IMG/VR virus record: IMGVR_UViG_2974574029_000001
Coordinates: 1 to 31,423 of that record
Direction: 5' to 3' (one strand)
Origin: a virus
Lineage: Duplodnaviria > Heunggongvirae > Uroviricota > Caudoviricetes
Length of the DNA stretch: 31,423 nt
In this document: positions 8,978-28,663 of the stretch, one piece after another
Numbering within the stretch: the first letter of the stretch is position 1
Layout: each line of letters opens with the position of its first letter
Position numbers and translations under genes: made by a program
Notes under the pieces: generated by a model
What the model was told of the DNA's origin: nothing
The model's database searches: none
The model's input: only the letters and a program-made list of their open reading frames with translations

Positions 8978-9349
8978 TTATTTATCCACCCAAACACGAT
9001 TTTCATCACACCAATCATAAAAATCTTTCATGATATCATTGAATTCCCTCATAGGTGTATAGTGACGAATTGGATCAGCATCATGACCTTCGGCCTCACA
9101 TTCAGCAATGGATGCTAACCACTCAGAATATGTAGGGATATCACGCAAATAGATTATAATATCAATGAGACCTCCATCACACTGAATGCTGTCATAACTC
9201 GCTTTGTTTGGAAACTTTCTTTCCAGACGGCGTGCGATCTCTTTCGCAAGTTCATGCACCGTCTTATCAGTCCAGTCTTCACGACCGCATTCACCATTGC
9301 GTTTATCCCAGATATCACGAAGGTCTAGTGTCGATTTCCACTCAGTCAT
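8978..9349 (-). CDS. Hypothetical protein
   Basis: AAGGAG SD before MTEWKS; C-terminal FNDIMKDFYDWCDENRVW. Confidence 0.7.
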   Translation of the reverse strand: MTEWKSTLDLRDIWDKRNGECGREDWTDKTVHELAKEIARRLERKFPNKASYDSIQCDGGLIDIIIYLRDIPTYSEWLASIAECEAEGHDADPIRHYTPMREFNDIMKDFYDWCDENRVWVDK

Positions 9350-9500
9350 TGTTTCTCTCCTTATATCTTCCTCGCCAAGGCCCGAAATGTCCACATTTCA
9401 AACATTCCCAGCTACATTGCCCATAAATGATGATCTTGCCGATTTTCTTATTGCGACAATTTGGACAAGAGTATACTATCTTACCACCTTTAGACAGCAT
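9342..9500 (-). CDS. Zinc-ribbon protein, 52 aa (not in ORF track)
   Basis: MLSKGGKIVYSCPNCRNKKIGKIIIYGQCSWECLKCGHFGPWRGRYKERNND; two CxxC pairs. Confidence 0.65.
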   Translation of the reverse strand: MLSKGGKIVYSCPNCRNKKIGKIIIYGQCSWECLKCGHFGPWRGRYKERNND

Positions 9501-9993
9501 TTTTCACCTTCCTCAACTCGAATTCATCGCCATAGCCTATCATATGCCCTTTGGCTGTGATCACCTTTTCACCAAACACGCTGCCAGTGCATTTACCAAT
9601 GAATACCTCTGGCATATCCTCTTCTTCCAAGAGGATATTCACATTGAAAATACCGTGATAATGAGTTGCCATACAATGCGGGGCATGTTTGTTTTTATTA
9701 TCATATTTCTTCCACACACCATGCCCAACATAGCGGTACATATTATACTTATACCATGTGTACGACCCCCATAAATCATAGGCTATATGATCAACCTTCA
9801 CGTTTACCAGACGACCTGTTTCCTTCAATAGCTCTCTATGCTCAGATCTTAGTTTCTTTATGGTTTCTTTAGCTCTCTCATAATACTCCAGATGACGATC
9901 AGCTCGCCGCATCATAACATCGAGAATACGTTCCTGGGCAGCACCACTGTCTACTAAAGAGTCGTACATATCCTTACTTGATTTGGTGGTCAT
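9490..9993 (-). CDS. Hypothetical protein
   Basis: AAGGAG SD; coiled-coil-like N-terminal half. Confidence 0.7.
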   Translation of the reverse strand: MTTKSSKDMYDSLVDSGAAQERILDVMMRRADRHLEYYERAKETIKKLRSEHRELLKETGRLVNVKVDHIAYDLWGSYTWYKYNMYRYVGHGVWKKYDNKNKHAPHCMATHYHGIFNVNILLEEEDMPEVFIGKCTGSVFGEKVITAKGHMIGYGDEFELRKVKNAV

Positions 9994-10006
9994 CAGTGGC
10001 ACTCCT

Positions 10007-10516
10007 TTATAGTTTCGATAAAACGTTGATCGCTTCGTGGTGTTCTTTCATCTTTGTCAGACGAAGATACATGTCATGATACTTACGAACACGTAACAAA
10101 TCCTTATCTGTCAGACCTTTCAGGCGACGAACATCCGAGTTGTGGCGTAGGTCTGCAAGCTTCACACGAACCGCATCGTAGTTGCTTGCAATACCCTGAA
10201 AATATTCTTCTGGTGTTTGATTCGGTGTCTTCGTTAGGAGAACCACTGCACAGACAACACGGTTGGAGAACCCCATCATCACGAGATCAGCCGCCATAAC
10301 GTCAGTATCTTCGACAACATCATGTAGCGCTGCGATCGCCATCAACTGAAAGTCATCTGACTTCAGATAATGCATAACCTTCAGAGGGTGAAGGATGTAC
10401 GGGTTACCACCCTTATCTTTCTGATTCAGGTGGCCTTCTGCTGCAATTTTAATTGCCAGGGCAAGCTCTTGTGCTGGATTTAAAACTTGTATCTGGGTAT
10501 TGATTGCTGATACCAT
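10007..10516 (-). CDS. HD-domain hydrolase, SpoT/Mesh1-like ((p)ppGpp hydrolase family)
   Basis: HLNQKDKGGNPYILHP, AALHDVVEDT, VKLADLRHN. Confidence 0.85.
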   Translation of the reverse strand: MVSAINTQIQVLNPAQELALAIKIAAEGHLNQKDKGGNPYILHPLKVMHYLKSDDFQLMAIAALHDVVEDTDVMAADLVMMGFSNRVVCAVVLLTKTPNQTPEEYFQGIASNYDAVRVKLADLRHNSDVRRLKGLTDKDLLRVRKYHDMYLRLTKMKEHHEAINVLSKL

Positions 10517-18971: not shown

Positions 18972-19246
18972 GATTCAAAACTGTGGGATATTTGTACGAT
19001 ATTTAATATCCCAAAGATATTTTAAAATTCGAAATGGTTTTCAAAATCGTTTTTGAAACGGATTTCATCTTCCCTGCAAATTTTTAAATAAAGAGTTTTG
19101 GGAGTAGATTATCTCAAACCTTTGTGGAAGCTATGTCGAAAAATGATGCACAAGTGTATGATTGCTATAGGTATCTTGGCATCAAGATTGGACATTTATC
19201 TCAAATAGGCGAAAAAGATATCTCAAATTTTCAGGTAGAAAACTCT

Positions 19247-19450
19247 GGGTTCTCGATCGACTTTTCGTTTTCAAAAACGTATTTGCTCTCACTATCAAAA
19301 AATTTTTCTCTATATCAACCGGGTTCTCGATCGGTTTTTCAAAATCGAGATCGTAATTGTTTTTTCTCTAGAAAAAATTTTTCGGCCCGGTTCTCGATCG
19401 AGATCTCAATTTCCAGATCGTATTTGTTTTCTTACGCGAAAAAATTTTTT
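19247..19450. repeat. Three imperfect ~70-bp direct repeats with A/T tracts
   Basis: GGTTCTCGATCG at 19248, 19322 and 19389, each followed by CGTA(T/A)TTG and AAAAAATTTTT. Confidence 0.8.
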
Positions 19451-19463
19451 AGGGGTATCGCTC

Positions 19464-19492
19464 AGTATCTCACATGAAAAATCAGAAGTCAA
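19464..19492 (-). promoter_or_regulatory. Leftward sigma70 promoter with no downstream ORF
   Basis: TTGACT-N17-GATACT with TG extension and upstream AT-rich UP-like tract. Confidence 0.6.
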
Positions 19493-19510
19493 TATTTAAA
19501 TTTTTTGTTG

Positions 19511-19558
19511 AATGAGAAGCATTCTTATTTAGTTATTTGAATGATAATCATTCTCATT
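19511..19558. promoter_or_regulatory. Two Fur-box-like palindromes
   Basis: AATGAGAAGCATTCTTATT (19511) and AATGATAATCATTCTCATT (19540); core 13/14 to TGATAATnATTATCA. Confidence 0.65.
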
Positions 19559-19620
19559 TGCTGAATGACAGGCACCCCCGGTGTTTTGTACTCCGGTTTC
19601 AATGTTCCCGCTATGTGTAT

Positions 19621-19649
19621 AATATAGGATACACGGCCCCATGTTGCAA
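19621..19649 (-). promoter_or_regulatory. Leftward sigma70 promoter with no downstream ORF
   Basis: TTGCAA-N17-TATATT. Confidence 0.7.
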
Positions 19650-19768
19650 GCGTCTTTACAATTCTTTACAAATAGGCTTTAGGCGAGCTGCCGGCGATTA
19701 TAGCTATCGATGCCCTGCGGCTATCATCACCCAAGTTTATCGCCGTTGGTAGGCGTTCCCGTCTATGT
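19650..19768 (-). ncRNA. Candidate small structured RNA
   Basis: Downstream of the 19774-19802 promoter; no credible ORF; CGCC/GGCG, GGCGAU/AUCGCC and AUAGC/GCUAU pairings. Confidence 0.4.
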
Positions 19769-19773
19769 AAGAG

Positions 19774-19802
19774 ATTATGCGCCCTTGCCGGGCGCTTGTC
19801 AA
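19774..19802 (-). promoter_or_regulatory. Strong leftward sigma70 promoter with hairpin spacer
   Basis: TTGACA-N17-CATAAT; GCGCCC-GGCAA-GGGCGC in the spacer. Confidence 0.8.
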
Positions 19803-19805
19803 GCG

Positions 19806-20399
19806 TCATAAACAAATTATTTCCGCTTTATTTTCGTAAGCCAGATCCAGAGCGTCAACACGTAAAGCCAAACCAGCGGCGATCCGATGATCGGTACATG
19901 AGAAAGCAACAGCCGCTATAATATCACGTTTGCGCCTATTCCATGCAAGATGGGCAGACAACGGATCAGAGTAATAGCCTAACCTTTCCAGATTGTTCCC
20001 GTGTCGCACCGTTGCCAAGTAGGGGCGCGGTAATGGCTTATGATCTAAAAAGGAAACACCGAGCGGCTGTTTCCCTTTATTACTCTTTGTGACTGTTAGC
20101 AAACTATTCATTTCTTGCGTTACAAATACGCAACGATCAGGGCAGTAGAGTTTATTACCTGGTATTATTATATCTTTGTCTAATTGTTTTCCCTGGTGAT
20201 CCTGCTGTTCCATCCAAGCACGAAAAGTGCTAAACGTCAACCATTCATTACAAACAATACAACCTTTATAAGATGGCCTTTTGTCCTGATATGATTCACT
20301 ATAACAACGTTGTAACATGTTGCGCCACGTTGCATAGAATCGACAACCTTTGATCGGGCTTGCGCTATCGTTAACCCCTACACCATAAACTTTTTTCAT
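19806..20399 (-). CDS. HNH-type homing endonuclease
   Basis: GVGVND, YATWRNMLQRCY, VCNEWLTFSTF, LDKDII, YCPDRCVFV; GGAGG SD. Confidence 0.9.
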   Translation of the reverse strand: MKKVYGVGVNDSASPIKGCRFYATWRNMLQRCYSESYQDKRPSYKGCIVCNEWLTFSTFRAWMEQQDHQGKQLDKDIIIPGNKLYCPDRCVFVTQEMNSLLTVTKSNKGKQPLGVSFLDHKPLPRPYLATVRHGNNLERLGYYSDPLSAHLAWNRRKRDIIAAVAFSCTDHRIAAGLALRVDALDLAYENKAEIICL

Positions 20400-20518
20400 C
20401 TGCTAGCCTCCTTTGTAAATACGTTGTACCAGCGATCCACCTTCCAACCAGGTCTCCGCGCCTGGTATGTTAGCCCCGCCTTTTCGCCGTGGGGTGGCGT
20501 CTCTTCTCCTGTCTGATA

Positions 20519-20547
20519 AATATAACCCAGGCCGGGGCCGTTTGCAA
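20519..20547 (-). promoter_or_regulatory. sigma70 promoter with UP element and ~110-nt structured leader for the HNH gene
   Basis: TTGCAA-N17-TATATT; AAAAAATATTTT upstream. Confidence 0.75.
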
Positions 20548-20567
20548 GCCCCGCGATAAAATATTTT

Positions 20568-20753
20568 TTACTCCCAGGAGTCCGCGATCACTTCCCCGTT
20601 TTCCGCTACAATTCTCACCCTGGTAAATCCTGCATTATACATTTTCAACGCGAAGGGTAAAGGCACAACCCTAACCTGGGGCGCTGCGCTTTCCGTCTCC
20701 CAGGTGGAAAGGGTGACCATTGTCTCACTCGTTATTACTTTTGCGTTTTCCAT
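20568..20753 (-). CDS. Early hypothetical protein
   Basis: AAGGTAAA SD; own promoter. Confidence 0.75.
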   Translation of the reverse strand: MENAKVITSETMVTLSTWETESAAPQVRVVPLPFALKMYNAGFTRVRIVAENGEVIADSWE

Positions 20754-20784
20754 TTCGTTTACCTTTATTTGTGGGCGTCCTTAT

Positions 20785-20886
20785 ATAGTACCCTAACCAG
20801 GCCGGGGCGCAAGCCCACACGAACAAAAATATTTTTAATTTATTTTCATCCAGGGGATTGACGCGGGGATCGCTATCTCTTAAAGT
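20785..20886. promoter_or_regulatory. Divergent early promoter pair sharing an AT-rich UP tract
   Basis: Minus TTGCGC-N16-TACTAT (20785-20812); plus TTGACG-N17-TAAAGT (20858-20886). Confidence 0.7.
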
Positions 20887-20938
20887 TTATCACGTCGGGG
20901 CAAGTCGCCCCACAGTAACCAACAAAAGAGGCTACAAC

Positions 20939-21106
20939 ATGAAAAACATTTCTTTTACTACCCGTGACCAGGCCCGCGCTTTTGCCCGTAATGTTAACAG
21001 CAAGGTAACCACGGCGGCGCGTTTACGTCAACCTGTTAAAGATGGCGCCGGGCAATGGGTTATCCCTGGAATTAACCACGGTAAAACCTTATCCCTGGCT
21101 AAATAA
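20939..21106 (+). CDS. Early small basic protein (55 aa)
   Basis: GAGG SD before MKNISFTTRDQARAFAR. Confidence 0.7.
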   Translation: MKNISFTTRDQARAFARNVNSKVTTAARLRQPVKDGAGQWVIPGINHGKTLSLAK

Positions 21107-21125
21107 AATATTTTATCCTGGGCGC

Positions 21126-21154
21126 TTGCTTTCAGTTAGCGCCTTTGATAAAGT
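21126..21154 (+). promoter_or_regulatory. Early promoter overlapping a terminator-like hairpin
   Basis: TTGCTT-N17-TAAAGT with TG extension; GGCGCT...AGCGCC-TTT. Confidence 0.7.
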
Positions 21155-21199
21155 GTTTTCTCAGGCGGCAAGGGCCGCGATAAATCGAGGTAAAAAGCA

Positions 21200-21985
21200 A
21201 TGTCTACGTTTAAACTTAATAATGGTCTGGTTGTCAACTCAGAATCCGAGATCGTGCATAGTGTACCGGGTAAAAAATCCACAGCAAAAAAGGGTTATGT
21301 ATTATATAAAGGCCCGTCAGTTCTGGATAAGGCCCCGATCGTGGTCATTGCTACAATGTCAACCGCTAACGATAAAACCGGCGATATGATCCAGACCTGG
21401 ATCATGCGGGAAGATGTTAGCCCACTGGAGGCGAGCGCTAAAAAACTTGATTCATCTGTTTGCGGTATGTGTCCCCATCGTACCAGCTTAAACGGCGCTT
21501 GTTATGTGACGTTACACCAGGCCCCACTGTCAGTCTGGAAGTCTTACAAAAAAGGCAACTATAAAGATCTTGATTCTCGCGATCTGGTACATTTTGCGGG
21601 GCGTTATATCCGTTTAGGTTCCTACGGTGATCCGGCGGCGGTCCCTTTTGAGGTATGGCAAAACATGGTCAACCATACGCAAGGTAACACGGGTTACACT
21701 CACCAGATCCACCATAAGAATTTTGATCATCGTATCGCTACCATTTGCCAGATCTCAGCCGATACGGAAAAACAAGCGATCACAGCATGGGGCAAGGGTT
21801 ATAAAACTTTCCGCGTGAAAACTCCCAATATGCGACGCCTGGAAGGGGAGATCACTTGCGTTAATACAACGCACGGCATTAGTTGTCTAGATTGCGGATT
21901 GTGCGACGGTAAACGCGCCAACGTCGTGATCGACGTTCACGGCAGATCCGCAAAAAGATTTGATAAATTCGAACGTATCATTTGA
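21200..21985 (+). CDS. Cys-rich putative Fe-S/radical-SAM-like early protein
   Basis: VCGMCPHR...ACYV, IRLGSYGDPA, GYTHQ, C-terminal CLDCGLC. Confidence 0.6.
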   Translation: MSTFKLNNGLVVNSESEIVHSVPGKKSTAKKGYVLYKGPSVLDKAPIVVIATMSTANDKTGDMIQTWIMREDVSPLEASAKKLDSSVCGMCPHRTSLNGACYVTLHQAPLSVWKSYKKGNYKDLDSRDLVHFAGRYIRLGSYGDPAAVPFEVWQNMVNHTQGNTGYTHQIHHKNFDHRIATICQISADTEKQAITAWGKGYKTFRVKTPNMRRLEGEITCVNTTHGISCLDCGLCDGKRANVVIDVHGRSAKRFDKFERII

Positions 21986-22010
21986 CATCAGGCCCGGAAA
22001 GGCCTATAAT
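21982..22010 (+). promoter_or_regulatory. Perfect-consensus sigma70 promoter
   Basis: TTGACA-N17-TATAAT; AGGCC-CGGAAA-GGCCT in the spacer. Confidence 0.9.
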
Positions 22011-22052
22011 TACCAGGCACCAACAAACTAAACACTAAACGAGGTAAATAAA

Positions 22053-22565
22053 ATGGGCTGGACTAGCATTTATTCTAATCTTAATAACAAAAAATTTGTT
22101 GAAAATTATCTGACTGATAACCGCGTGATCGAAACGTCTATTGTAGGCAATGAAGTTTATCAGCTTGCAAGGGCGAGAGATGAAAGTCTTTACATTCGTG
22201 TTACAATCCTTTCCCGCAAAGATGGTGTGGTTTTTTATAAAGATATGGACGAATCCTGCGGCCCGTGTTATTACAATTGTCCTGAAAAATTCCTTAAGCG
22301 ATCCACGCAACAAGATGAATTCTCTGTTAATTGGCGCGCCGCTTGTCGTCAACATGTTAAACACAAAAAAGAGCATAAAGCACTGATTGACCGGATCAAA
22401 CTTCTGAAAAACGGTGATCGCGTGGAAATGATATCCGGGCGCGTGGTTGTCTTTGAGTTCCCCCATAACCGCGCCCGATTTGCTGGACGTCTGGCGGATG
22501 TTGCACCAGGCAAGCAAAATTCTCTTTTTGCATGGTCTTATAAAGACGTTGCAAAGATTCTTTAA
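22053..22565 (+). CDS. Early protein resembling DUF6927
   Basis: MGW start, FYKDMDESCGPCYYNCP, WRAACR. Confidence 0.65.
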   Translation: MGWTSIYSNLNNKKFVENYLTDNRVIETSIVGNEVYQLARARDESLYIRVTILSRKDGVVFYKDMDESCGPCYYNCPEKFLKRSTQQDEFSVNWRAACRQHVKHKKEHKALIDRIKLLKNGDRVEMISGRVVVFEFPHNRARFAGRLADVAPGKQNSLFAWSYKDVAKIL

Positions 22566-22576
22566 ACCGCTATACT
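22549..22576 (+). promoter_or_regulatory. Early sigma70 promoter
   Basis: TTGCAA-N16-TATACT. Confidence 0.7.
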
Positions 22577-22624
22577 GATTAAAGCCGGGGAATTGTCCCC
22601 GGCATAACCTAAAAGGTAAACAAA

Positions 22625-23008
22625 ATGGCTTACATGAACAAAGAAAAGAAAGCGAAAATTGTTGAAGCAGTGAAAGCTGTATTGCCAAAAGGTTGGAAAG
22701 TTACGTTTAAAGTAATTCACTATTCTACGATCCGTTGTACCGTTCGATCCGCGCCGTTCAATTTGGATGATGTTTTAGATTTAACAGATTGGGAACGGGA
22801 AAACGGGCACAAGGATTTAAACACATACCACTATGAAAGATATTGCAAAACTCCTGAATTCAAAAAGGCAGTTGGCGAAATCATCGAGGCATTAAATACA
22901 GATAATTATAATAATAGTGATATAATGACAGATTATTTTGATGTCGGTCACTATATCGGCCTACATTTTGGCGGCCATGATAAGTCATTTAAAAACAGCG
23001 CTGCGTAA
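22625..23008 (+). CDS. Early protein with LPD29-like C-terminus
   Basis: NYNNSDIMTDYFDVGHY motif; AAGGTAAA SD. Confidence 0.7.
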   Translation: MAYMNKEKKAKIVEAVKAVLPKGWKVTFKVIHYSTIRCTVRSAPFNLDDVLDLTDWERENGHKDLNTYHYERYCKTPEFKKAVGEIIEALNTDNYNNSDIMTDYFDVGHYIGLHFGGHDKSFKNSAA

Positions 23009-23114
23009 TATGAAAGAATTTTTGATTCTACTCATATTTTGTTATTATGCAAAAATTCACGCCAGGATCTGGCGTGTTGTAAAATGGTTTTACTACTGGT
23101 ACAGGGTTAAAACA

Positions 23115-23372
23115 ATGTTCCACTATATAGAATATCGCTTCCAGGGTGAGGAGTATCACACCAGGCGATCCGGGCCGTTGAATGATCTGGAAGGTAGCGG
23201 CCTGATTTGTGAGATTAAGCACCGGGGCGGCGTGGTCCTGGTACATAAAGAGGGGCCTTTCGACTACATCGAAGAGCTGATCGAGTATCGCAAAAAACAG
23301 ATCGCGGAATGGCGAGCGGAAACATACAACCACAGGGGATCAAGATATGACAGCAAAAAGCCGCAACTTTGA
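23115..23372 (+). CDS. Early hypothetical protein
   Basis: AGGGTTAAA SD; the leader carries hairpin CACGCCAG-GAT-CTGGCGTG. Confidence 0.6.
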   Translation: MFHYIEYRFQGEEYHTRRSGPLNDLEGSGLICEIKHRGGVVLVHKEGPFDYIEELIEYRKKQIAEWRAETYNHRGSRYDSKKPQL

Positions 23373-23562
23373 GAAGATGACAAGCCAGCGCGATCGCCTT
23401 GCTTTTGGTGAGACTAACGAGCGGCGCGAGCGTAACAACAAACGGCATAAGCCGGAACGGATTGCGGTTCAATGGTCGCCGGACCAGTACGACCCGAAGT
23501 TAAATAAACGCCTTGCCGATCGTAAACGTAATTTGCAGCGATACGCCGTAGCAGGTGAATAG
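23347..23562 (+). CDS. Early basic hypothetical protein
   Basis: 71-aa Arg/Lys-rich ORF followed by a terminator. Confidence 0.65.
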   Translation: MTAKSRNFEKMTSQRDRLAFGETNERRERNNKRHKPERIAVQWSPDQYDPKLNKRLADRKRNLQRYAVAGE

Positions 23563-23566
23563 CCAG

Positions 23567-23595
23567 GCCGGGGATAACTTCCCGGCTTTTTTTTT
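23567..23595 (+). terminator. Intrinsic terminator
   Basis: GCCGGG...CCCGGC followed by a T9 run. Confidence 0.85.
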
Positions 23596-23824
23596 ATTCA
23601 AAATAGTGAATATGGGGAGATCTCAGCGTAGCAATGCACTTACCAGGGTTACACATTGAAGCGCTTACAATCGATTTTAGGGCGTTTTAGAGGGTATCGG
23701 ATAGCCTCGCCGCGCTCAAAACGCCACAAATTTAGTAACCAGTTGAAACTAATTGCATAACAGCGATTTTCTATGCATATCGCTGCATATGAGAACAGTT
23801 CTCAACAATTCTTAAAAATATTTG

Positions 23825-23852
23825 TTGCATCCTGGCGGCGTTATGCTATCCT
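23825..23852 (+). promoter_or_regulatory. Early promoter preceded by a Fur-box-like palindrome (23790-23804)
   Basis: TTGCAT-N16-TATCCT with TG extension; TGAGAAC-A-GTTCTCA upstream. Confidence 0.65.
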
Positions 23853-23898
23853 TTAATCAGTGGCGGAATTCACCGCCACACTGAAAAAGGTAAACAAC

Positions 23899-24183
23899 AT
23901 GCAAAACGTAAAATCTAACATCGCCGCTCTTGAATCAAAGTTCCTGGGTAAAATGGTTTATCATAACTATGGTCAAATCGCTTTTGGTGTGGTAACCGGA
24001 ATCGATGACCGCGATCCCAATAAATTACGTTTGCGTGTTAAGTTTACCCGCAACAATACCCCGGCACATATCAAAAAATATGACAACCGCGCGGATCGCG
24101 TTCGTTGCTTACTCCCTCAATCTGTTACCGTGTCCCGTGTTCAATATGGGATCTATAATCAGACAAATCAGATCAACAAATAA
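23899..24183 (+). CDS. Early hypothetical protein (SH3/KOW-like)
   Basis: AAGGTAAA SD before MQNVKS; leader hairpin GTGGCGG-AATTCA-CCGCCAC. Confidence 0.7.
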   Translation: MQNVKSNIAALESKFLGKMVYHNYGQIAFGVVTGIDDRDPNKLRLRVKFTRNNTPAHIKKYDNRADRVRCLLPQSVTVSRVQYGIYNQTNQINK

Positions 24184-24220
24184 TCAAACCGGGGCCTTGC
24201 GCCCCATTAAGGCGGCTATC

Positions 24221-24439
24221 ATGTTCGGATTTATTTTATTGGCTTGTCATATTTCTGTTAGTTCTATGTCATTACAATGTGATTGGACTGTAAAGAAAGT
24301 TTTTGATGACGAACAAGCTTGCGAGGTGTACGAAAACAGCTACACTTTGAAAAAGGGTGAGCAGGTGGGGATCTGCGATACGTTAGATCCTGGCGTCAAA
24401 GAGGGCGACAAGCGCCCGATCATTACTCTGAAAAAATAA
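24221..24439 (+). CDS. Small Cys-rich exported/membrane-anchored protein (paralog 1)
   Basis: MFGFILLAC...QCDWTV...FDDEQACE...C; AAGGCGG SD. Confidence 0.65.
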   Translation: MFGFILLACHISVSSMSLQCDWTVKKVFDDEQACEVYENSYTLKKGEQVGICDTLDPGVKEGDKRPIITLKK

Positions 24440-24449
24440 GGCGGTTAAC

Positions 24450-24653
24450 ATGTTTGAAGTATTCGCGGGTATGTGTTTTTATAGTGCGCTGGCGTTAAAA
24501 CAGTGTGATGATTATGTAGTTGAAAGTTATGATGATCAATTGACATGCGAGATCGTCGCCGTTGATTATCAACGTCAAGAGCGCTGGATTAACCCGGCTT
24601 GCATACCATCGCCGGAAGTCGAACCGATGCCGGAAAGCAAAAATAATCATTGA
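24450..24653 (+). CDS. Small Cys-rich exported/membrane-anchored protein (paralog 2)
   Basis: MFEVFAGMC...QCDDYV...YDDQLTCE...C; AAGGCGG SD. Confidence 0.65.
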   Translation: MFEVFAGMCFYSALALKQCDDYVVESYDDQLTCEIVAVDYQRQERWINPACIPSPEVEPMPESKNNH

Positions 24654-24679
24654 TCCCCCCCGCCCGGTTAGGTTATATT
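24650..24679 (+). promoter_or_regulatory. Early sigma70 promoter
   Basis: TTGATC-N18-TATATT. Confidence 0.55.
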
Positions 24680-24725
24680 ACTTGGACCGGGCAATATTGA
24701 CCCACTAATAGAAAGGTAAAAGAGT

Positions 24726-25049
24726 ATGGAAAAGGCAAACAAATTTTTCTTCCTGGAAAATGTTAACGATAATGTTAATTGTAACTTTAATCGCCAGGGT
24801 GAAAAAACCATGTTAGTGTTTTGTCATGCTAATGACAGCGAACAAGCGGACCTTTTAACTGTCCTGATCCGTACTGAAAAATCTATTCAATCCCATAATG
24901 GAAAACTTGAAAACCGCCATTTTATCGCCTACACTCTTGAAAGAAGCGGAGTAACAATAAAACAGGCGGATAGTCTCCCGATAACTTCCCCGGATCTGGT
25001 CTGGATGCTTACAACTGCTATTGTAAACGATGTTTTCCGTGCTGACTGA
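24726..25049 (+). CDS. Early hypothetical protein
   Basis: AAGGTAAA SD. Confidence 0.7.
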   Translation: MEKANKFFFLENVNDNVNCNFNRQGEKTMLVFCHANDSEQADLLTVLIRTEKSIQSHNGKLENRHFIAYTLERSGVTIKQADSLPITSPDLVWMLTTAIVNDVFRAD

Positions 25050-25075
25050 TTGAGAAAATTAATCTAAAAAGTCGC

Positions 25076-25104
25076 TTGCAAACGTGGGCGACTTTTATTA
25101 TATT
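25076..25104 (+). promoter_or_regulatory. Early promoter embedded in a bidirectional terminator
   Basis: TTGCAA-N17-TATATT inside AAAAGTCGC...GCGACTTTT. Confidence 0.8.
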
Positions 25105-25156
25105 TAATGCACAGGGCGGCAATGATGCGACGGCCCACAAATCGAGGTAAAACAGA

Positions 25157-25927
25157 ATGACTACTAAAATCACCGTTACTTATTACATCGACTCCGGCAA
25201 GCTGAATGCAATGTACACATTACGCCGCCGTAATTTTGGCGGTAACGTTTTTGCAGATTCTTACATCTGCAATCTTTCAACCGACCCACAGAAAGCAGAA
25301 ATTAAAGCAAAGGAATATTTTGATCGAGTAACCGCGCGGATCGCCAATACAGAAAACTTTGAACAAGTTTTTGCAGGCTACGCAGATTTTGAGCTGGGGC
25401 AACGTCGCGGTAAATTGTCAATCGTCGATACAACCCGGATCGAAGAAATCGAAGCGGGGCGCTTTCCGTTTGGTAAACATTGCGGTAAAACGTTTGCCGA
25501 TGTTAAAGAATCCTATGTTTTATTTTTTGCCGATATGGCAAACAAGCCAGACAACGGCCCGGTAATGGAAGCATTAAGCGCGGCATGTTTGGGCTATGCT
25601 CTTGATCATGGTTACATTGCAGCCCGTGACCAAAAACGCGCCGATCGTAAAGCCGAGGATTTAAAAAGTAATTGGATCGGCAACATTGGCGATCGCCTGG
25701 TTTTTGAGGGTGAGATCGTTTTCTCTTATCTCAAAATTGATGAATGGAATCAATCATCATACTATATTATTAAAATCCGCCAGGGTAATGACCTGGTAAC
25801 ATACATCGGATCAAAAGAGTTCGGCCCGGTTGGCGCGGTTGTTAAGTTTAAGGCTACCATTAAAAAACATGATACCTATCAAGACGTTAAAACAACCGTT
25901 GTAAACCGTCCCGCCATTGTGTCATAG
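25157..25927 (+). CDS. Early protein with DUF3820-like FGKH-G motif and OB-fold-like C-terminus
   Basis: RFPFGKHCGKTFADV; C-terminal IGNIGDRL...KFKATIKKH. Confidence 0.7.
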   Translation: MTTKITVTYYIDSGKLNAMYTLRRRNFGGNVFADSYICNLSTDPQKAEIKAKEYFDRVTARIANTENFEQVFAGYADFELGQRRGKLSIVDTTRIEEIEAGRFPFGKHCGKTFADVKESYVLFFADMANKPDNGPVMEALSAACLGYALDHGYIAARDQKRADRKAEDLKSNWIGNIGDRLVFEGEIVFSYLKIDEWNQSSYYIIKIRQGNDLVTYIGSKEFGPVGAVVKFKATIKKHDTYQDVKTTVVNRPAIVS

Positions 25928-25970
25928 TGTACACCAGGCCCCGGATCGCCGGGGCAACTTTTACTGGTAA

Positions 25971-26126
25971 ATGCAAATGATACGTTTTCTCAATATGCGA
26001 TCTGGTAAAATTTATCGCTGGATTGAAAACCGTGTTTTGGTTGAAACGACAAAAGGCTGGCGACGTGTAGATCACTTGCGCCCCGCCGATCTGGCTTGCT
26101 TTCCTTTCATGGGGATTAAAAAATGA
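25971..26126 (+). CDS. Early hypothetical protein, 51 aa (not in ORF track)
   Basis: MQMIRFLNMRSGKIYRWIENRVLVETTKGWRRVDHLRPADLACFPFMGIKK; leader hairpin CCCCGG-ATCG-CCGGGG. Confidence 0.55.
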   Translation: MQMIRFLNMRSGKIYRWIENRVLVETTKGWRRVDHLRPADLACFPFMGIKK

Positions 26127-26212
26127 TTAGTGTACGAATGTTTTATTACGATGAATTATCAGACCAGGCAAAAGCCGCCGCCCGGAGTTTTTTTAGAACA
26201 AAAGGGCCTTAA
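26123..26212 (+). CDS. Small ORF, possibly frameshifted in the T7 run
   Basis: ATGA-coupled MISVRMFYYDELSDQAKAAAR; an alternate frame continues FLEQKGLKVIKVTKRKKG to a stop coupled to 26246. Confidence 0.4.
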   Translation: MISVRMFYYDELSDQAKAAARSFFRTKGP

Positions 26213-26245
26213 AGTAATCAAAGTAACTAAACGCAAAAAAGGTTA

Positions 26246-26458
26246 ATGATCATGAGAACTGTAAAAGCGAAGGAATTAAAAGGCGGAATGGTCATTGAGT
26301 TACCGGACATTGCACCAGGCTTTAAACCTGGTTTAGTGACTATCACACAAATAGAAATCGAAGCGCCCCACATTGTGGAAGTATCTTTCTATTACAAAAA
26401 GCGCTATATGGCCGACCTTTATCACCCTGAGGCGGAATTTAACCTAATCAGTGAATGA
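26246..26458 (+). CDS. Early hypothetical protein (SH3-like)
   Basis: MRTVKAKELKGGMVI N-terminus. Confidence 0.7.
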   Translation: MIMRTVKAKELKGGMVIELPDIAPGFKPGLVTITQIEIEAPHIVEVSFYYKKRYMADLYHPEAEFNLISE

Positions 26459-26482
26459 GGCTGTAAAGAAAAGGCAAAACGC

Positions 26483-26511
26483 TTGCCTAGCCAGATGTTT
26501 TCGACTATTAT
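26483..26511 (+). promoter_or_regulatory. Early sigma70 promoter
   Basis: TTGCCT-N17-TATTAT. Confidence 0.7.
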
Positions 26512-26560
26512 TTATTTCAGGGCGGGAAGAAACCAACCCGCAAAACCGAAGGTAAATAAA

Positions 26561-26730
26561 ATGTCAAATATCCGCTACAATATCAAAAGCACTTCAAAAA
26601 CCGGTTATGTGTCTTATGTTCGCCAGGGGTCTACAATGCTTGGGCCTTTGAAGAATGTGTAAAAATTGTTACTACGCTTTCAGGTGATGATCGCTATATG
26701 GGCGTTTTATTTGAGATTGAATTAGCTTAA
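26561..26730 (+). CDS. Early protein of ~56 aa with an apparent -1 indel in the G run at 26626-26629
   Basis: AAGGTAAA SD; MSNIRYNIKSTSKTGYVSYVRQG joins VYNAWAFEECVKIVTTLSGDDRYMGVLFEIELA if one G is added. Confidence 0.55.
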
Positions 26731-26755
26731 TTAGCAAAATAACATCGGGGCGCTA

Positions 26756-26784
26756 TTGCAGCGCCCTTTTTCGTCTGTTATTCT
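26756..26784 (+). promoter_or_regulatory. Early promoter embedded in a terminator
   Basis: TTGCAG-N17-TATTCT inside GGGCGCT-ATTGC-AGCGCCC followed by a T run. Confidence 0.75.
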
Positions 26785-26815
26785 TTTACCTCCCTCATTA
26801 AACGAGTAATACCAA

Positions 26816-27079
26816 ATGACAAACATGATTTACATTGTAAGCAAAACAAGCCTTTTACGCGCTACCCTGCTGGCTTGCCTTATTGCTTTAGTGTCTAATA
26901 CGTGTTTTAACTGGCTGGCCTGTCTGGTAACGACTGAGACAACGGCGCAAGGGTTTAACACCATGATCGACGTTTTACAATTGACGTTTTACACCCTGAT
27001 TAAACTTAATCGCTTTAATCGTTTAGACCGTTATGATCTCCCTTTCTTGATCGCTGGCCTGCTGGCTATCGCGCTGTAA
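26816..27079 (+). CDS. Early membrane protein (2-3 TM segments)
   Basis: Hydrophobic segments; followed by a terminator. Confidence 0.65.
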   Translation: MTNMIYIVSKTSLLRATLLACLIALVSNTCFNWLACLVTTETTAQGFNTMIDVLQLTFYTLIKLNRFNRLDRYDLPFLIAGLLAIAL

Positions 27080-27104
27080 GGCTCCACTACTCCCCAAAAA
27101 TAAT

Positions 27105-27125
27105 GCCGGGCAACTCCCGGCTTTT
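27105..27125 (+). terminator. Intrinsic terminator ending the early block
   Basis: GCCGGG-CAACT-CCCGGC-TTTT. Confidence 0.75.
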
Positions 27126-27361
27126 GTGTTTTTATATGTTAGGTTTTATCAATCAATAATCAAAAAGTGATAGGTGACTAAAACCTGCATAATCGAGATC
27201 TCCAGGCGGTAACCCACTAGCCAGGGCAAGGGATAAAGTCCCTCAGAATGGCGCATATTGCGCTTAAAAGGGTATGGCCCTACCTAACAACCCCCACAAT
27301 TAATAACGCATGTTATTAACTGAATAAAATATGCATTTTTACGCATTATGTATGCATAGCG

Positions 27362-28103
27362 TGAGAATCACTCTCAAATGATAACTTTTATCATCTAATC
27401 TATTGTGTGAACTGGTTTTATTGAGCATAACTATACACTTTTCAAGTGTTTTAACATCCTGTTAAAATCGCCTTGCGATACTAAAATAAAATCTTGTCAA
27501 ATAAAAATCGTTCGCGTAATCGTGGGGAGTGGCGCGAGCGTAGCGAGCGACACAATAACACGAGAGTAACTCAAATGCGAACAAATCGCATTCTCGTTCG
27601 CGTTATCGTGGCTCGTTAGCGCCTAAGAGCGAATGAAAATTGTTATCATTAAGATCATTACATCCGTAATGATTAGCAAACTTATTTTATCACATCGCCA
27701 CGATAACACCGATCACGCTCTGCGTGATCGCTCTCGTGTTATTGTGTCGCTGGTGATAGTAAACCCGTGTTATTATATGCGATCAAATCGCATTAAATCG
27801 TGAATAATGGTTGACAAACCAGAATTATTGATAATGAAAACATGTTGTTTTTGAGCATAGTTTGCCTGAAGTGTCAATATAAATTTATCATAGAGAATAG
27901 CTATCAATCCCTTGCGTAGCAAGGGTTGATGGGAATGATTATCATTGCGGAAATGCTCAAAATTGTATGGTGTGTTAGTGTATTGCTAAACACGATTCTC
28001 TCTCCTTGTCAAGCTTTTATTTATAAATTTACAAAATATTTATATTTACGGAATGATTCTCATTTCGAAATTGAATTCGAAATCGAAATAATAATGATTC
28101 TCA
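27362..28103. promoter_or_regulatory. Cluster of seven Fur-box-like 7-1-7 sequences
   Basis: Sites start at 27362, 27379, 27634, 27892, 27930, 28048 and 28089 (see findings). Confidence 0.6.
27546..27751. other. 206-nt multibranch secondary-structure element (ncRNA or ssDNA structure)
   Basis: Perfect 21-bp inverted repeat 27546-27566/27731-27751 enclosing an 11-bp stem and four hairpins. Confidence 0.8.
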
Positions 28104-28135
28104 TTCGTCATCTCATTCACAAAACAACCCTGAAA

Positions 28136-28153
28136 GATGAATAATCACACATG
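28136..28153 (+). promoter_or_regulatory. ARG-box-like sequence (ArgR)
   Basis: GATGAATAATCACACATG fits TGAAT-N4-A(T/C)NCA; ~108 bp before the XerC arm. Confidence 0.45.
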
Positions 28154-28261
28154 AAACTATCACCATGATAACAGTCACACCATGTAATGACCTGAAGCGG
28201 CTGGCCTATGTGTCACACTGGTAACATTGGGGCATTATTAGTCTGCTATGTATTGTTAGCC

Positions 28262-28289
28262 AGTGCGTATAACGTGTTTTATGTTAAAT
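28262..28289 (+). other. XerC/XerD dif-like recombination site
   Basis: AGTGCGTATAA-CGTGTT-TTATGTTAAAT; XerD arm 11/11 and XerC arm 9/11 identical to E. coli dif (GGTGCGCATAA-TGTATA-TTATGTTAAAT). Confidence 0.85.
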
Positions 28290-28663
28290 GGTGTAATTCA
28301 TATAAATATAAGCTTGTCAAGAGTAAATCGTGCTGTAAGCTGGCAAACCATAAGCTTGCTATCTGACACACCCAATTATTATTAGTTTCGGCAAGTAACT
28401 ATCATGCCTGAAGAGGCCCCGAGGAACCGGGAACCGGATCGACCTTGCCCATGATATTTTGTAAAGATCCGTAAAGATAGTTGACGCCAGGAGCTGTCCG
28501 TCTAGCACCGCAGATGGTGCGAATACAATATTTTTTACCCAAGGACCAAGCCATGATATTTTTCGGCAAGTGATATTTTCGGCAGGGGGTCTGTTTTGAT
28601 TTCCCCACGGGGGGAAGGGGTGGTTATACGGGGAAAACAGGGGCCTGTTTACGCGATATATTT

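Follow-up and report, generated by a model that had tools for sequence, protein, structure and literature searches.

The window analysed here (31,423 nt, the first 31.4 kb of the complete 145,759-bp virus record IMGVR_UViG_2974574029_000001, Caudoviricetes) carries palindromes in its non-coding DNA that match the operators of the enterobacterial regulator Fur. We favour the reading, at a probability of roughly 45%, that these are genuine operators of the host Fur protein, which would locally block transcription units lacking an open reading frame (ORF) in a manner depending on iron. The sequence evidence set out below, with boxes at the same places in distant relatives, makes a so far undescribed use of host Fur and iron status by these phages probable. 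Close relatives belong to the genus Mydovirus (Klebsiella and Proteus phages within the Vequintavirinae, i.e. rV5-like virulent myoviruses) and are 93-95% identical to the window. Genes run leftward up to 11.5 kb, rightward from 11.6 to 27.1 kb, and leftward again from 28.4 kb; the segment from 20.9 to 27.1 kb consists of small, early-gene-like genes of unassigned function. The boxes are found in two ORF-poor zones, zone 1 (19478-19805) and zone 2 (27080-28401), as well as in a minor zone (23563-23859). Zone 2 is the meeting point of the converging flanking gene blocks, and zones 1 and 2 together bracket an 8-9 kb block of small genes that adjoins one genome end. A first-pass annotation of the sequence had proposed that the palindromes are confined to non-coding zones around the early block, which is correct: the boxes lie in ORF-less DNA around 20.9-27.1 kb. 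A search with a positive control finds no FUR-family gene in the phage genome, and the ligand would therefore be the Fur protein of the host (Fe2+-Fur).

Boxes were scored with a position weight matrix (PWM) obtained by an unsupervised palindromic expectation-maximization search in nine E. coli K-12 Fur-regulon control regions (fhuA, cirA, fecI, ryhB, exbB, fiu, fepA-fes, fepD-entS, and fepB-entC), with no consensus supplied beforehand. The search returns the consensus AATGATAATCATTATCATT with one site per region. Counting mismatches to a 19-mer consensus is too coarse, and the PWM was used in its place. Each 19-bp box starts 2 bp before the corresponding core of two 7-bp arms around one central base (box 19511, for example, corresponds to core 19513). 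Across the whole genome, the four best matches are, in descending order, the boxes at 19540, 28087, 27632, and 19511 (Table 1); they score 20.3-27.2 bits, compared to 17.5-23.4 bits for the nine E. coli operators. The match covers every informative position of the 19-bp matrix, and variation is concentrated at those positions where Fur sites vary. Box 28087 differs from the E. coli ryhB operator in the central base only. The relationship also holds in the reciprocal direction: for a matrix built from ten phage sites alone and scanned over the 27-kb E. coli ent/fep cluster, the top seven matches all fall at three divergent promoters under Fur control, fepA-fes, fepD-entS, and fepB-entC. Both test directions support the assignment of the palindromes as Fur boxes by sequence, and the earlier recognition of TGAGAAT/ATTCTCA palindromes as Fur sites is borne out. 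ArgR, Zur, FNR, CRP, and LexA were considered as regulators and rejected by spacing or consensus.

Dinucleotide shuffles of the whole genome, and of each zone alone, served as background. For the whole genome, 4 matches of at least 17 bits are observed versus 0.13 expected; the comparison of a PWM scan with shuffled sequence, suggested earlier as a check, hence yields an excess of matches. Zone 1 holds 2 matches of at least 17 bits versus 0.002 expected, and zone 2 holds 6 matches of at least 12 bits versus 0.056 expected; none of 2000 shuffles reaches either count. For zone 2, the expectation at 17 bits and above is 0.006 in shuffles of the zone only. Since the zone shuffles keep the AT-richness and nevertheless expect almost no boxes, AT-richness fails to explain the enrichment. 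Of the 11 matches of at least 12 bits in the whole genome, 9 lie within 19.5-28.1 kb. All ten 15-mers listed by the first-pass annotation are present at the positions and with the sequences given there, and its count of about ten is fair when understood as four top-grade boxes, six or seven intermediate boxes (9.5-13.4 bits), and one half-site. The half-site is the palindrome listed at 28048, whose sequence is present and which does not qualify as a full Fur box. Two further boxes, at 27500 and 27574, were not on that list.

Table 1. Fur boxes, predicted promoters, and associated elements in the window. Scores refer to the PWM trained on E. coli.
Feature	Positions	Strand	Score or basis
Predicted leftward sigma-70 promoter P3, TTGACT-17-GATACT with TG	19464..19492	-	promoter scan
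Zone 1 distal Fur box AATGAGAAGCATTCTTATT	19511..19529		20.3 bits
Zone 1 proximal Fur box AATGATAATCATTCTCATT	19540..19558		27.2 bits, best match of the genome
Conserved leader between P2 and Fur array, ~55 nt	19559..19613	-	consensus fold
Predicted leftward sigma-70 promoter P2, TTGCAA-17-TATATT	19621..19649	-	promoter scan
Intermediate Fur-like box	23788..23806		12.2 bits; 12 of 2000 local shuffles reach the score
Predicted promoter TTGCAT-16-TATCCT restarting the early block	23826..23853	+	read from sequence
Two adjacent intermediate boxes	27360..27395		27360: 9.5 bits (weak); 27377: 12.5 bits
Intermediate box	27500..27518		13.4 bits; identical 19-mer in VIK251, DP, and Mydo
Palindrome AATGCGAACAAATCGCATT, where relatives carry a full Fur box	27574..27592		12.2 bits here
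Strong Fur box within the 27546-27751 inverted-repeat structure	27632..27650		23.3 bits
Two intermediate boxes just outside the terminal repeat	27890..27946		27890: 11.9 bits; 27928: 13.3 bits
Direct terminal repeat (genome ends), ~513 bp	27989..28501		placed by homology with phage DP
Half-site GGAATGATTCTCATT	28046..28064		2.1 bits; related copy of the unit at 27932 (direct-repeat family D1/D2)
Strong Fur box ~100 bp inside the terminal repeat	28087..28105		24.7 bits

On the leftward strand, zone 1 reads: a conserved A/T-rich element (TTTGTAAAGAATTGTAAAGA), the predicted promoter P2, the leader, the Fur array, the predicted promoter P3, a conserved A6T6 tract, and 70-bp repeats that overlap ORF 19124-19477. 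The distal box is exactly 29 bp from the proximal box, and in relatives this whole unit is either present or absent. The proximal box scores at least 17.6 bits in 18 of 18 distinct sequences of relatives, which range as far as rV5 and a Vibrio phage. The predicted start of P2 is near 19613, and the Fur array accordingly spans roughly +55 to +105. Across six genera, the TTG of the -35 and the TAnnnT of the -10 of P2 hold their position though the spacer diverges. The leader between P2 and the array has a 6-bp closing stem (AUAGCG/CGCUAU) with compensatory AU-GC changes and G-U pairs at a weak consensus energy; the stem is missing from a consensus fold of the opposite strand. The leader also contains the stretch ACACCG, which is unchanged between Klebsiella phages and the Vibrio phage. 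We regard the P2 leader as a candidate small RNA or leader without an Rfam family: the window contains no Rfam family at gathering score, and five related loci give only two chance miRNA matches. P3 is located 18 bp beyond the distal box, with the boxes at about -63, and points into the 70-bp repeat region; its left flank keeps a constant distance to the outermost box in one-box as well as two-box relatives. Neither P2 nor P3 is associated with an ORF, and both read into the conserved repeat region. A rightward promoter with a box in its spacer (TTGAAT-18-CAGAAT) is plausible in rV5, CR3, and Av-05; it was given low weight, as position -11 is not consistently A (it is T in this phage and G in two others). 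As a separate observation, the motif TTGTAAAGA has only three copies in 145.7 kb, a tandem pair just upstream of P2 (19653-19675, minus strand) and one copy at the right edge of the terminal repeat (28455-28486, plus strand), each followed by a TTGAC or TTGCA hexamer. The motif may represent a shared protein site or a promoter upstream element.

The arrangement extends well beyond the genus. The 80 bp carrying the zone-1 boxes have matches in 274 phage records, and an alignment of zone 1 comprises Mydovirus, rV5, CR3 (Certrevirus), ESCO5 and FBKp34 (both Stephanstirmvirinae), and Vibrio phage 1.161.O. Relatives have one to four boxes that repeat at exactly 29 bp; all of them have the proximal box, and in some it is the single box of the zone. 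In the five distant genomes of rV5, FBKp34, ESCO5, CR3, and Vibrio phage 1.161.O, all matches to the 15-mer TGAKAATNATTMTCA (at most one mismatch) are found in, between, or immediately beside two clusters that are 8-13 kb apart, and a reversed control pattern of the 15-mer has no match in the same five genomes. A strict search of IMG/VR for two perfect Fur cores at a distance of 29 bp returns 10 further viral stretches, two of which have a second pair 58 bp further, giving up to four cores in phase; these stretches may represent further groups of phages or cargo under Fur control.

In zone 2, the terminal repeat was placed by means of Klebsiella phage DP, for which a 514-bp repeat_region is annotated at both ends, the first and last bases of which align to 27989 and approximately 28501. 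Box 28087 lies inside the repeat thus placed and therefore would be present in two copies per virion DNA. Weak promoter-like hexamers overlap it. It is identical in five Mydoviruses, and in Seunavirus a box is shifted by about 12 bp. The remaining boxes of zone 2 are found within 650 bp, partly in a 21-bp perfect inverted repeat. In an alignment of eight Mydovirus and Seunavirus genomes, boxes 27360 and 27377 are conserved in both genera, the former with 15.1 bits in VIK251, DP, and Mydo. Box 27632 is present in VIK251, DP, and EspYZU15 (28.8 bits) and absent in AV124, Mydo, PVP-SE1, and 4MG, whose boxes stand elsewhere, and hence is subject to turnover. Box 27928 stands some 45 bp ahead of the repeat boundary; at its position, the score is 20.9 bits for DP and Mydo and 21.2 bits for 4MG. 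All 8 aligned phages retain the half-site at 28046, two single-base variants included, and 4MG has a full box of 21.6 bits there. Each of the eight genomes keeps several boxes, with losses matched by boxes at a distance of bases to tens of bases. Turnover of this type, with several boxes retained, is the pattern of selection for Fur-box content. At the left boundary of the repeat, eight phages share a conserved TAAACAC motif, a possible cutting region of the terminase.

One position of zone 2 departs from this pattern and leads to a different interpretation. At 27574, the relatives have a full Fur box (26.9 bits in VIK251 and DP, 25.9 bits in EspYZU15 and PVP-SE1, 21.0 bits in 4MG). In the phage described here, symmetrical changes replace this box such that the Fur consensus is lost, whereas the palindromic symmetry appears to be retained. 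Two copies of the palindrome AATGCGAnCAAATCGCATT, at 27574-27592 and 27777-27794, are separated by 202 bp. The palindromes might serve a phage protein or a host factor other than Fur, or they might be DNA or RNA hairpins with a mere resemblance to Fur boxes, and this compensated palindrome as well as the location of several boxes within larger inverted repeats are in line with such a role. We consider it highly unlikely for the sites as a whole, given that the match leaves out no informative position of the 19-bp E. coli matrix, that phages of Escherichia, Klebsiella, Salmonella, Cronobacter, and Vibrio, as well as the unrelated phage T5, share the same consensus, and that boxes which were turned over still keep the Fur consensus.

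A local role in cis is favoured because the boxes are fixed across distant genera with respect to phase, distance to promoter and leader, and site in the terminal repeat. In the favoured reading of iron-dependent operators, the one to four boxes of zone 1 would carry a near-continuous coat of Fur. A spacing of 29 bp is approximately one Fur footprint. The coat would be situated directly downstream of the conserved strong promoter P2 and its structured leader and directly upstream of P3, and bound Fur would act as an iron-dependent block, either as an operator or as a roadblock, on the non-coding transcription units. In zone 2 the same action of Fur may apply to promoter-like AT-rich DNA in and beside the terminal repeat, such that the non-coding transcription of the phage would shift with the iron status of the host. 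The analysis shows the sequence identity with Fur operators, the enrichment, the conservation, and the geometry; Fur binding, the direction of its effect, and the role of the transcripts are inferred.

Several points weigh against this interpretation. In no case does a box take the classic operator position, with the -35 and -10 hexamers of a convincing ORF promoter on either side, and in this phage the best rightward candidate (TTGAAT-18-CTGAAT) is without the key A at -11. Distances from box to promoter, surveyed for about 50 boxes in ten loci, give no common geometry beyond the homologous P2; the survey is noisy, as Fur boxes themselves resemble -10 and -35 hexamers. A Fur roadblock well downstream of the start site is not textbook and has little precedent. 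P2 and P3 and their transcripts are predictions, and at least one site (27574) may matter as a hairpin or as the site of another protein. The first-pass annotation had stated that most sites do not overlap a gene promoter. This is true with respect to promoters of ORFs, but the boxes of zone 1 are flanked by conserved sigma-70 promoters that are not associated with an ORF.

The same annotation had put forward an array of decoys: the multiplying phage genomes would soak up Fur, thereby derepress iron uptake and RyhB of the host, and feed iron to phage enzymes. Each genome provides four top-grade and about seven further boxes, with box 28087 doubled in the terminal repeat; the phage encodes the small subunit of an iron-dependent ribonucleotide reductase of the NrdB type (48007-48849); and titration of Fur by multicopy Fur boxes is established (the principle of FURTA). 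For a decoy, however, number and affinity suffice, yet the phase, the distances to promoter and leader, and the site at the repeat are preserved from genus to genus. In some relatives zone 1 retains one box only, and E. coli holds several thousand Fur molecules, such that only late, high-copy DNA could bite. As the main explanation we therefore judge a decoy unlikely, conserved positions, phase, and neighbours being more than a pure decoy would need. A local role and titration are compatible. Among the options listed in the first-pass annotation, iron-sensing control of transcription and an architectural scaffold are the leading candidates.

The architectural option assigns Fur a role in DNA transactions: bound at the two zones, it would delimit or secure a terminal segment of the genome, which may be the first to enter, or it would serve the start of replication or packaging. 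IHF, which serves the cos site of phage lambda, provides a model for the latter. Zone 2 overlaps and flanks the terminal repeat, and one of its top-grade boxes is some 100 bp away from the physical end (the end being placed by homology). In six genera, zone 1 is found 8-13 kb further inward, i.e. at 6-9% of the genome, comparable to the 8% of first-step DNA of phage T5, and adjoins the conserved 70-bp repeats. The three best Fur matches in the first 13 kb of T5 (9552, 22.6 bits; 9656, 28.8 bits; 9691, 23.4 bits) are all found within the annotated injection stop signal (iss, 9140-10149), spanning 9552-9715 and flanking the reported shear point near 9618. The iss is Repeat Region 3 of the left terminal repeat of T5, and its palindromes and direct repeats have been known for decades. 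Like zone 1, which is about 8.5-9 kb from the terminal repeat as placed by DP, the iss is gene-free and repeat-rich and borders a terminal early-gene segment on its inner side, and the share of the genome taken by this segment is comparable in both phages. The repeat of T5, however, comprises 10 kb and holds the whole early segment, whereas the repeat is about 0.5 kb here, and the sequences are not homologous.

Two-step entry is a trait of T5; staged entry of DNA is not known for phages of the rV5 type, nor is it known which end enters first. Paired DnaA boxes have been proposed for the stop region of T5-like phages (10.1101/866236), and the T5 literature examined proposes DnaA boxes with no mention of Fur. 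In the window, DnaA boxes (TTWTNCACA) are not enriched (4 observed versus 3.9 expected, none in zone 2); one DnaA-type match in zone 1 (19614-19622, minus strand) coincides with the predicted start of P2. GC and AT skew track gene direction and give no signal of an origin, and Fur is not known to take part in DNA entry, packaging, or replication. On balance, an architectural function of Fur appears somewhat unlikely. Its most specific form, in which the zones are the borders of a separately handled terminal segment (a counterpart in rV5- and phi92-type phages of the first-step DNA of T5) with Fur pausing, anchoring, or insulating, is very unlikely. If it were true, iron status would gate the start of infection in several unrelated groups of large lytic phages.

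The remaining features of the region concern the minor zone and the surroundings of zone 1. Box 23788 lies between an early terminator (23565-23588) and the next promoter, about 20 bp upstream of the latter. RNA data were found in the form of contigs from wastewater or animal metagenome runs. Contigs of a related phage from a bovine metatranscriptome cover genes of the early block and are uninformative for zones 1 and 2, which are uncovered. One such contig ends at 23510, ahead of the terminator, and another starts at 23869, past the predicted promoter; the latter has sequencing adaptor at both ends. The contig ends are a weak hint of separate early transcription units. On the right of zone 1, an ORF of 197 aa (19806-20399) matches the C-terminal half only of an HNH endonuclease family and is probably truncated. 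The contig of a related phage skips 19689-20426, joining 19688 to 20427, such that the HNH ORF is absent there; the skipped segment looks like a recent homing-endonuclease insertion that divides a conserved non-coding region. On the left, ORF 19124-19477 belongs to a PHROG family of unassigned function and coincides with three repeats of about 70 bp with GATC and A-tracts; the ORF is doubtful and may be non-coding. A tRNA scan of the window finds none.

We note that the boxes are, judged by their sequence, ordinary Fur operators, unusual in their carrier and arrangement. They have the same consensus as enterobacterial Fur operators with equal or higher scores, and adjacent multiple boxes are also found at host promoters, for example fepB-entC and fiu. 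They differ from host operators in that they are located in ORF-less DNA of a strictly lytic phage, away from the -35 and -10 of gene promoters, as a 29-bp-phased array downstream of a predicted promoter and, in addition, inside a terminal repeat. Among temperate phages, a Fur box is found upstream of stx1. A further box is located upstream of sitABCD on lambdoid phages (PMC6969025). The sitABCD case shares with the phage described here the presence of host Fur sites on phage DNA; there the box is at the promoter of a cargo gene that benefits the host and resides on a prophage, whereas here the phage is virulent, has no such cargo gene, and carries the boxes as part of a conserved non-coding core. 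Our literature search, with many subscription journals outside its reach, found no account of virulent phages with arrays of Fur boxes, the sitABCD prophages being the sole phage match.

Fur is among the best-known bacterial regulators. If it binds these sites, phage subfamilies of the type used in therapy against Klebsiella, E. coli, Salmonella, and Cronobacter would read or disturb the iron status of their host. Infected tissue is scarce in iron, and the performance of the phages there could be affected. The boxes would also provide a named and easily tested host partner for conserved non-coding hubs and, by way of T5, for the palindromes of the injection stop signal as well.

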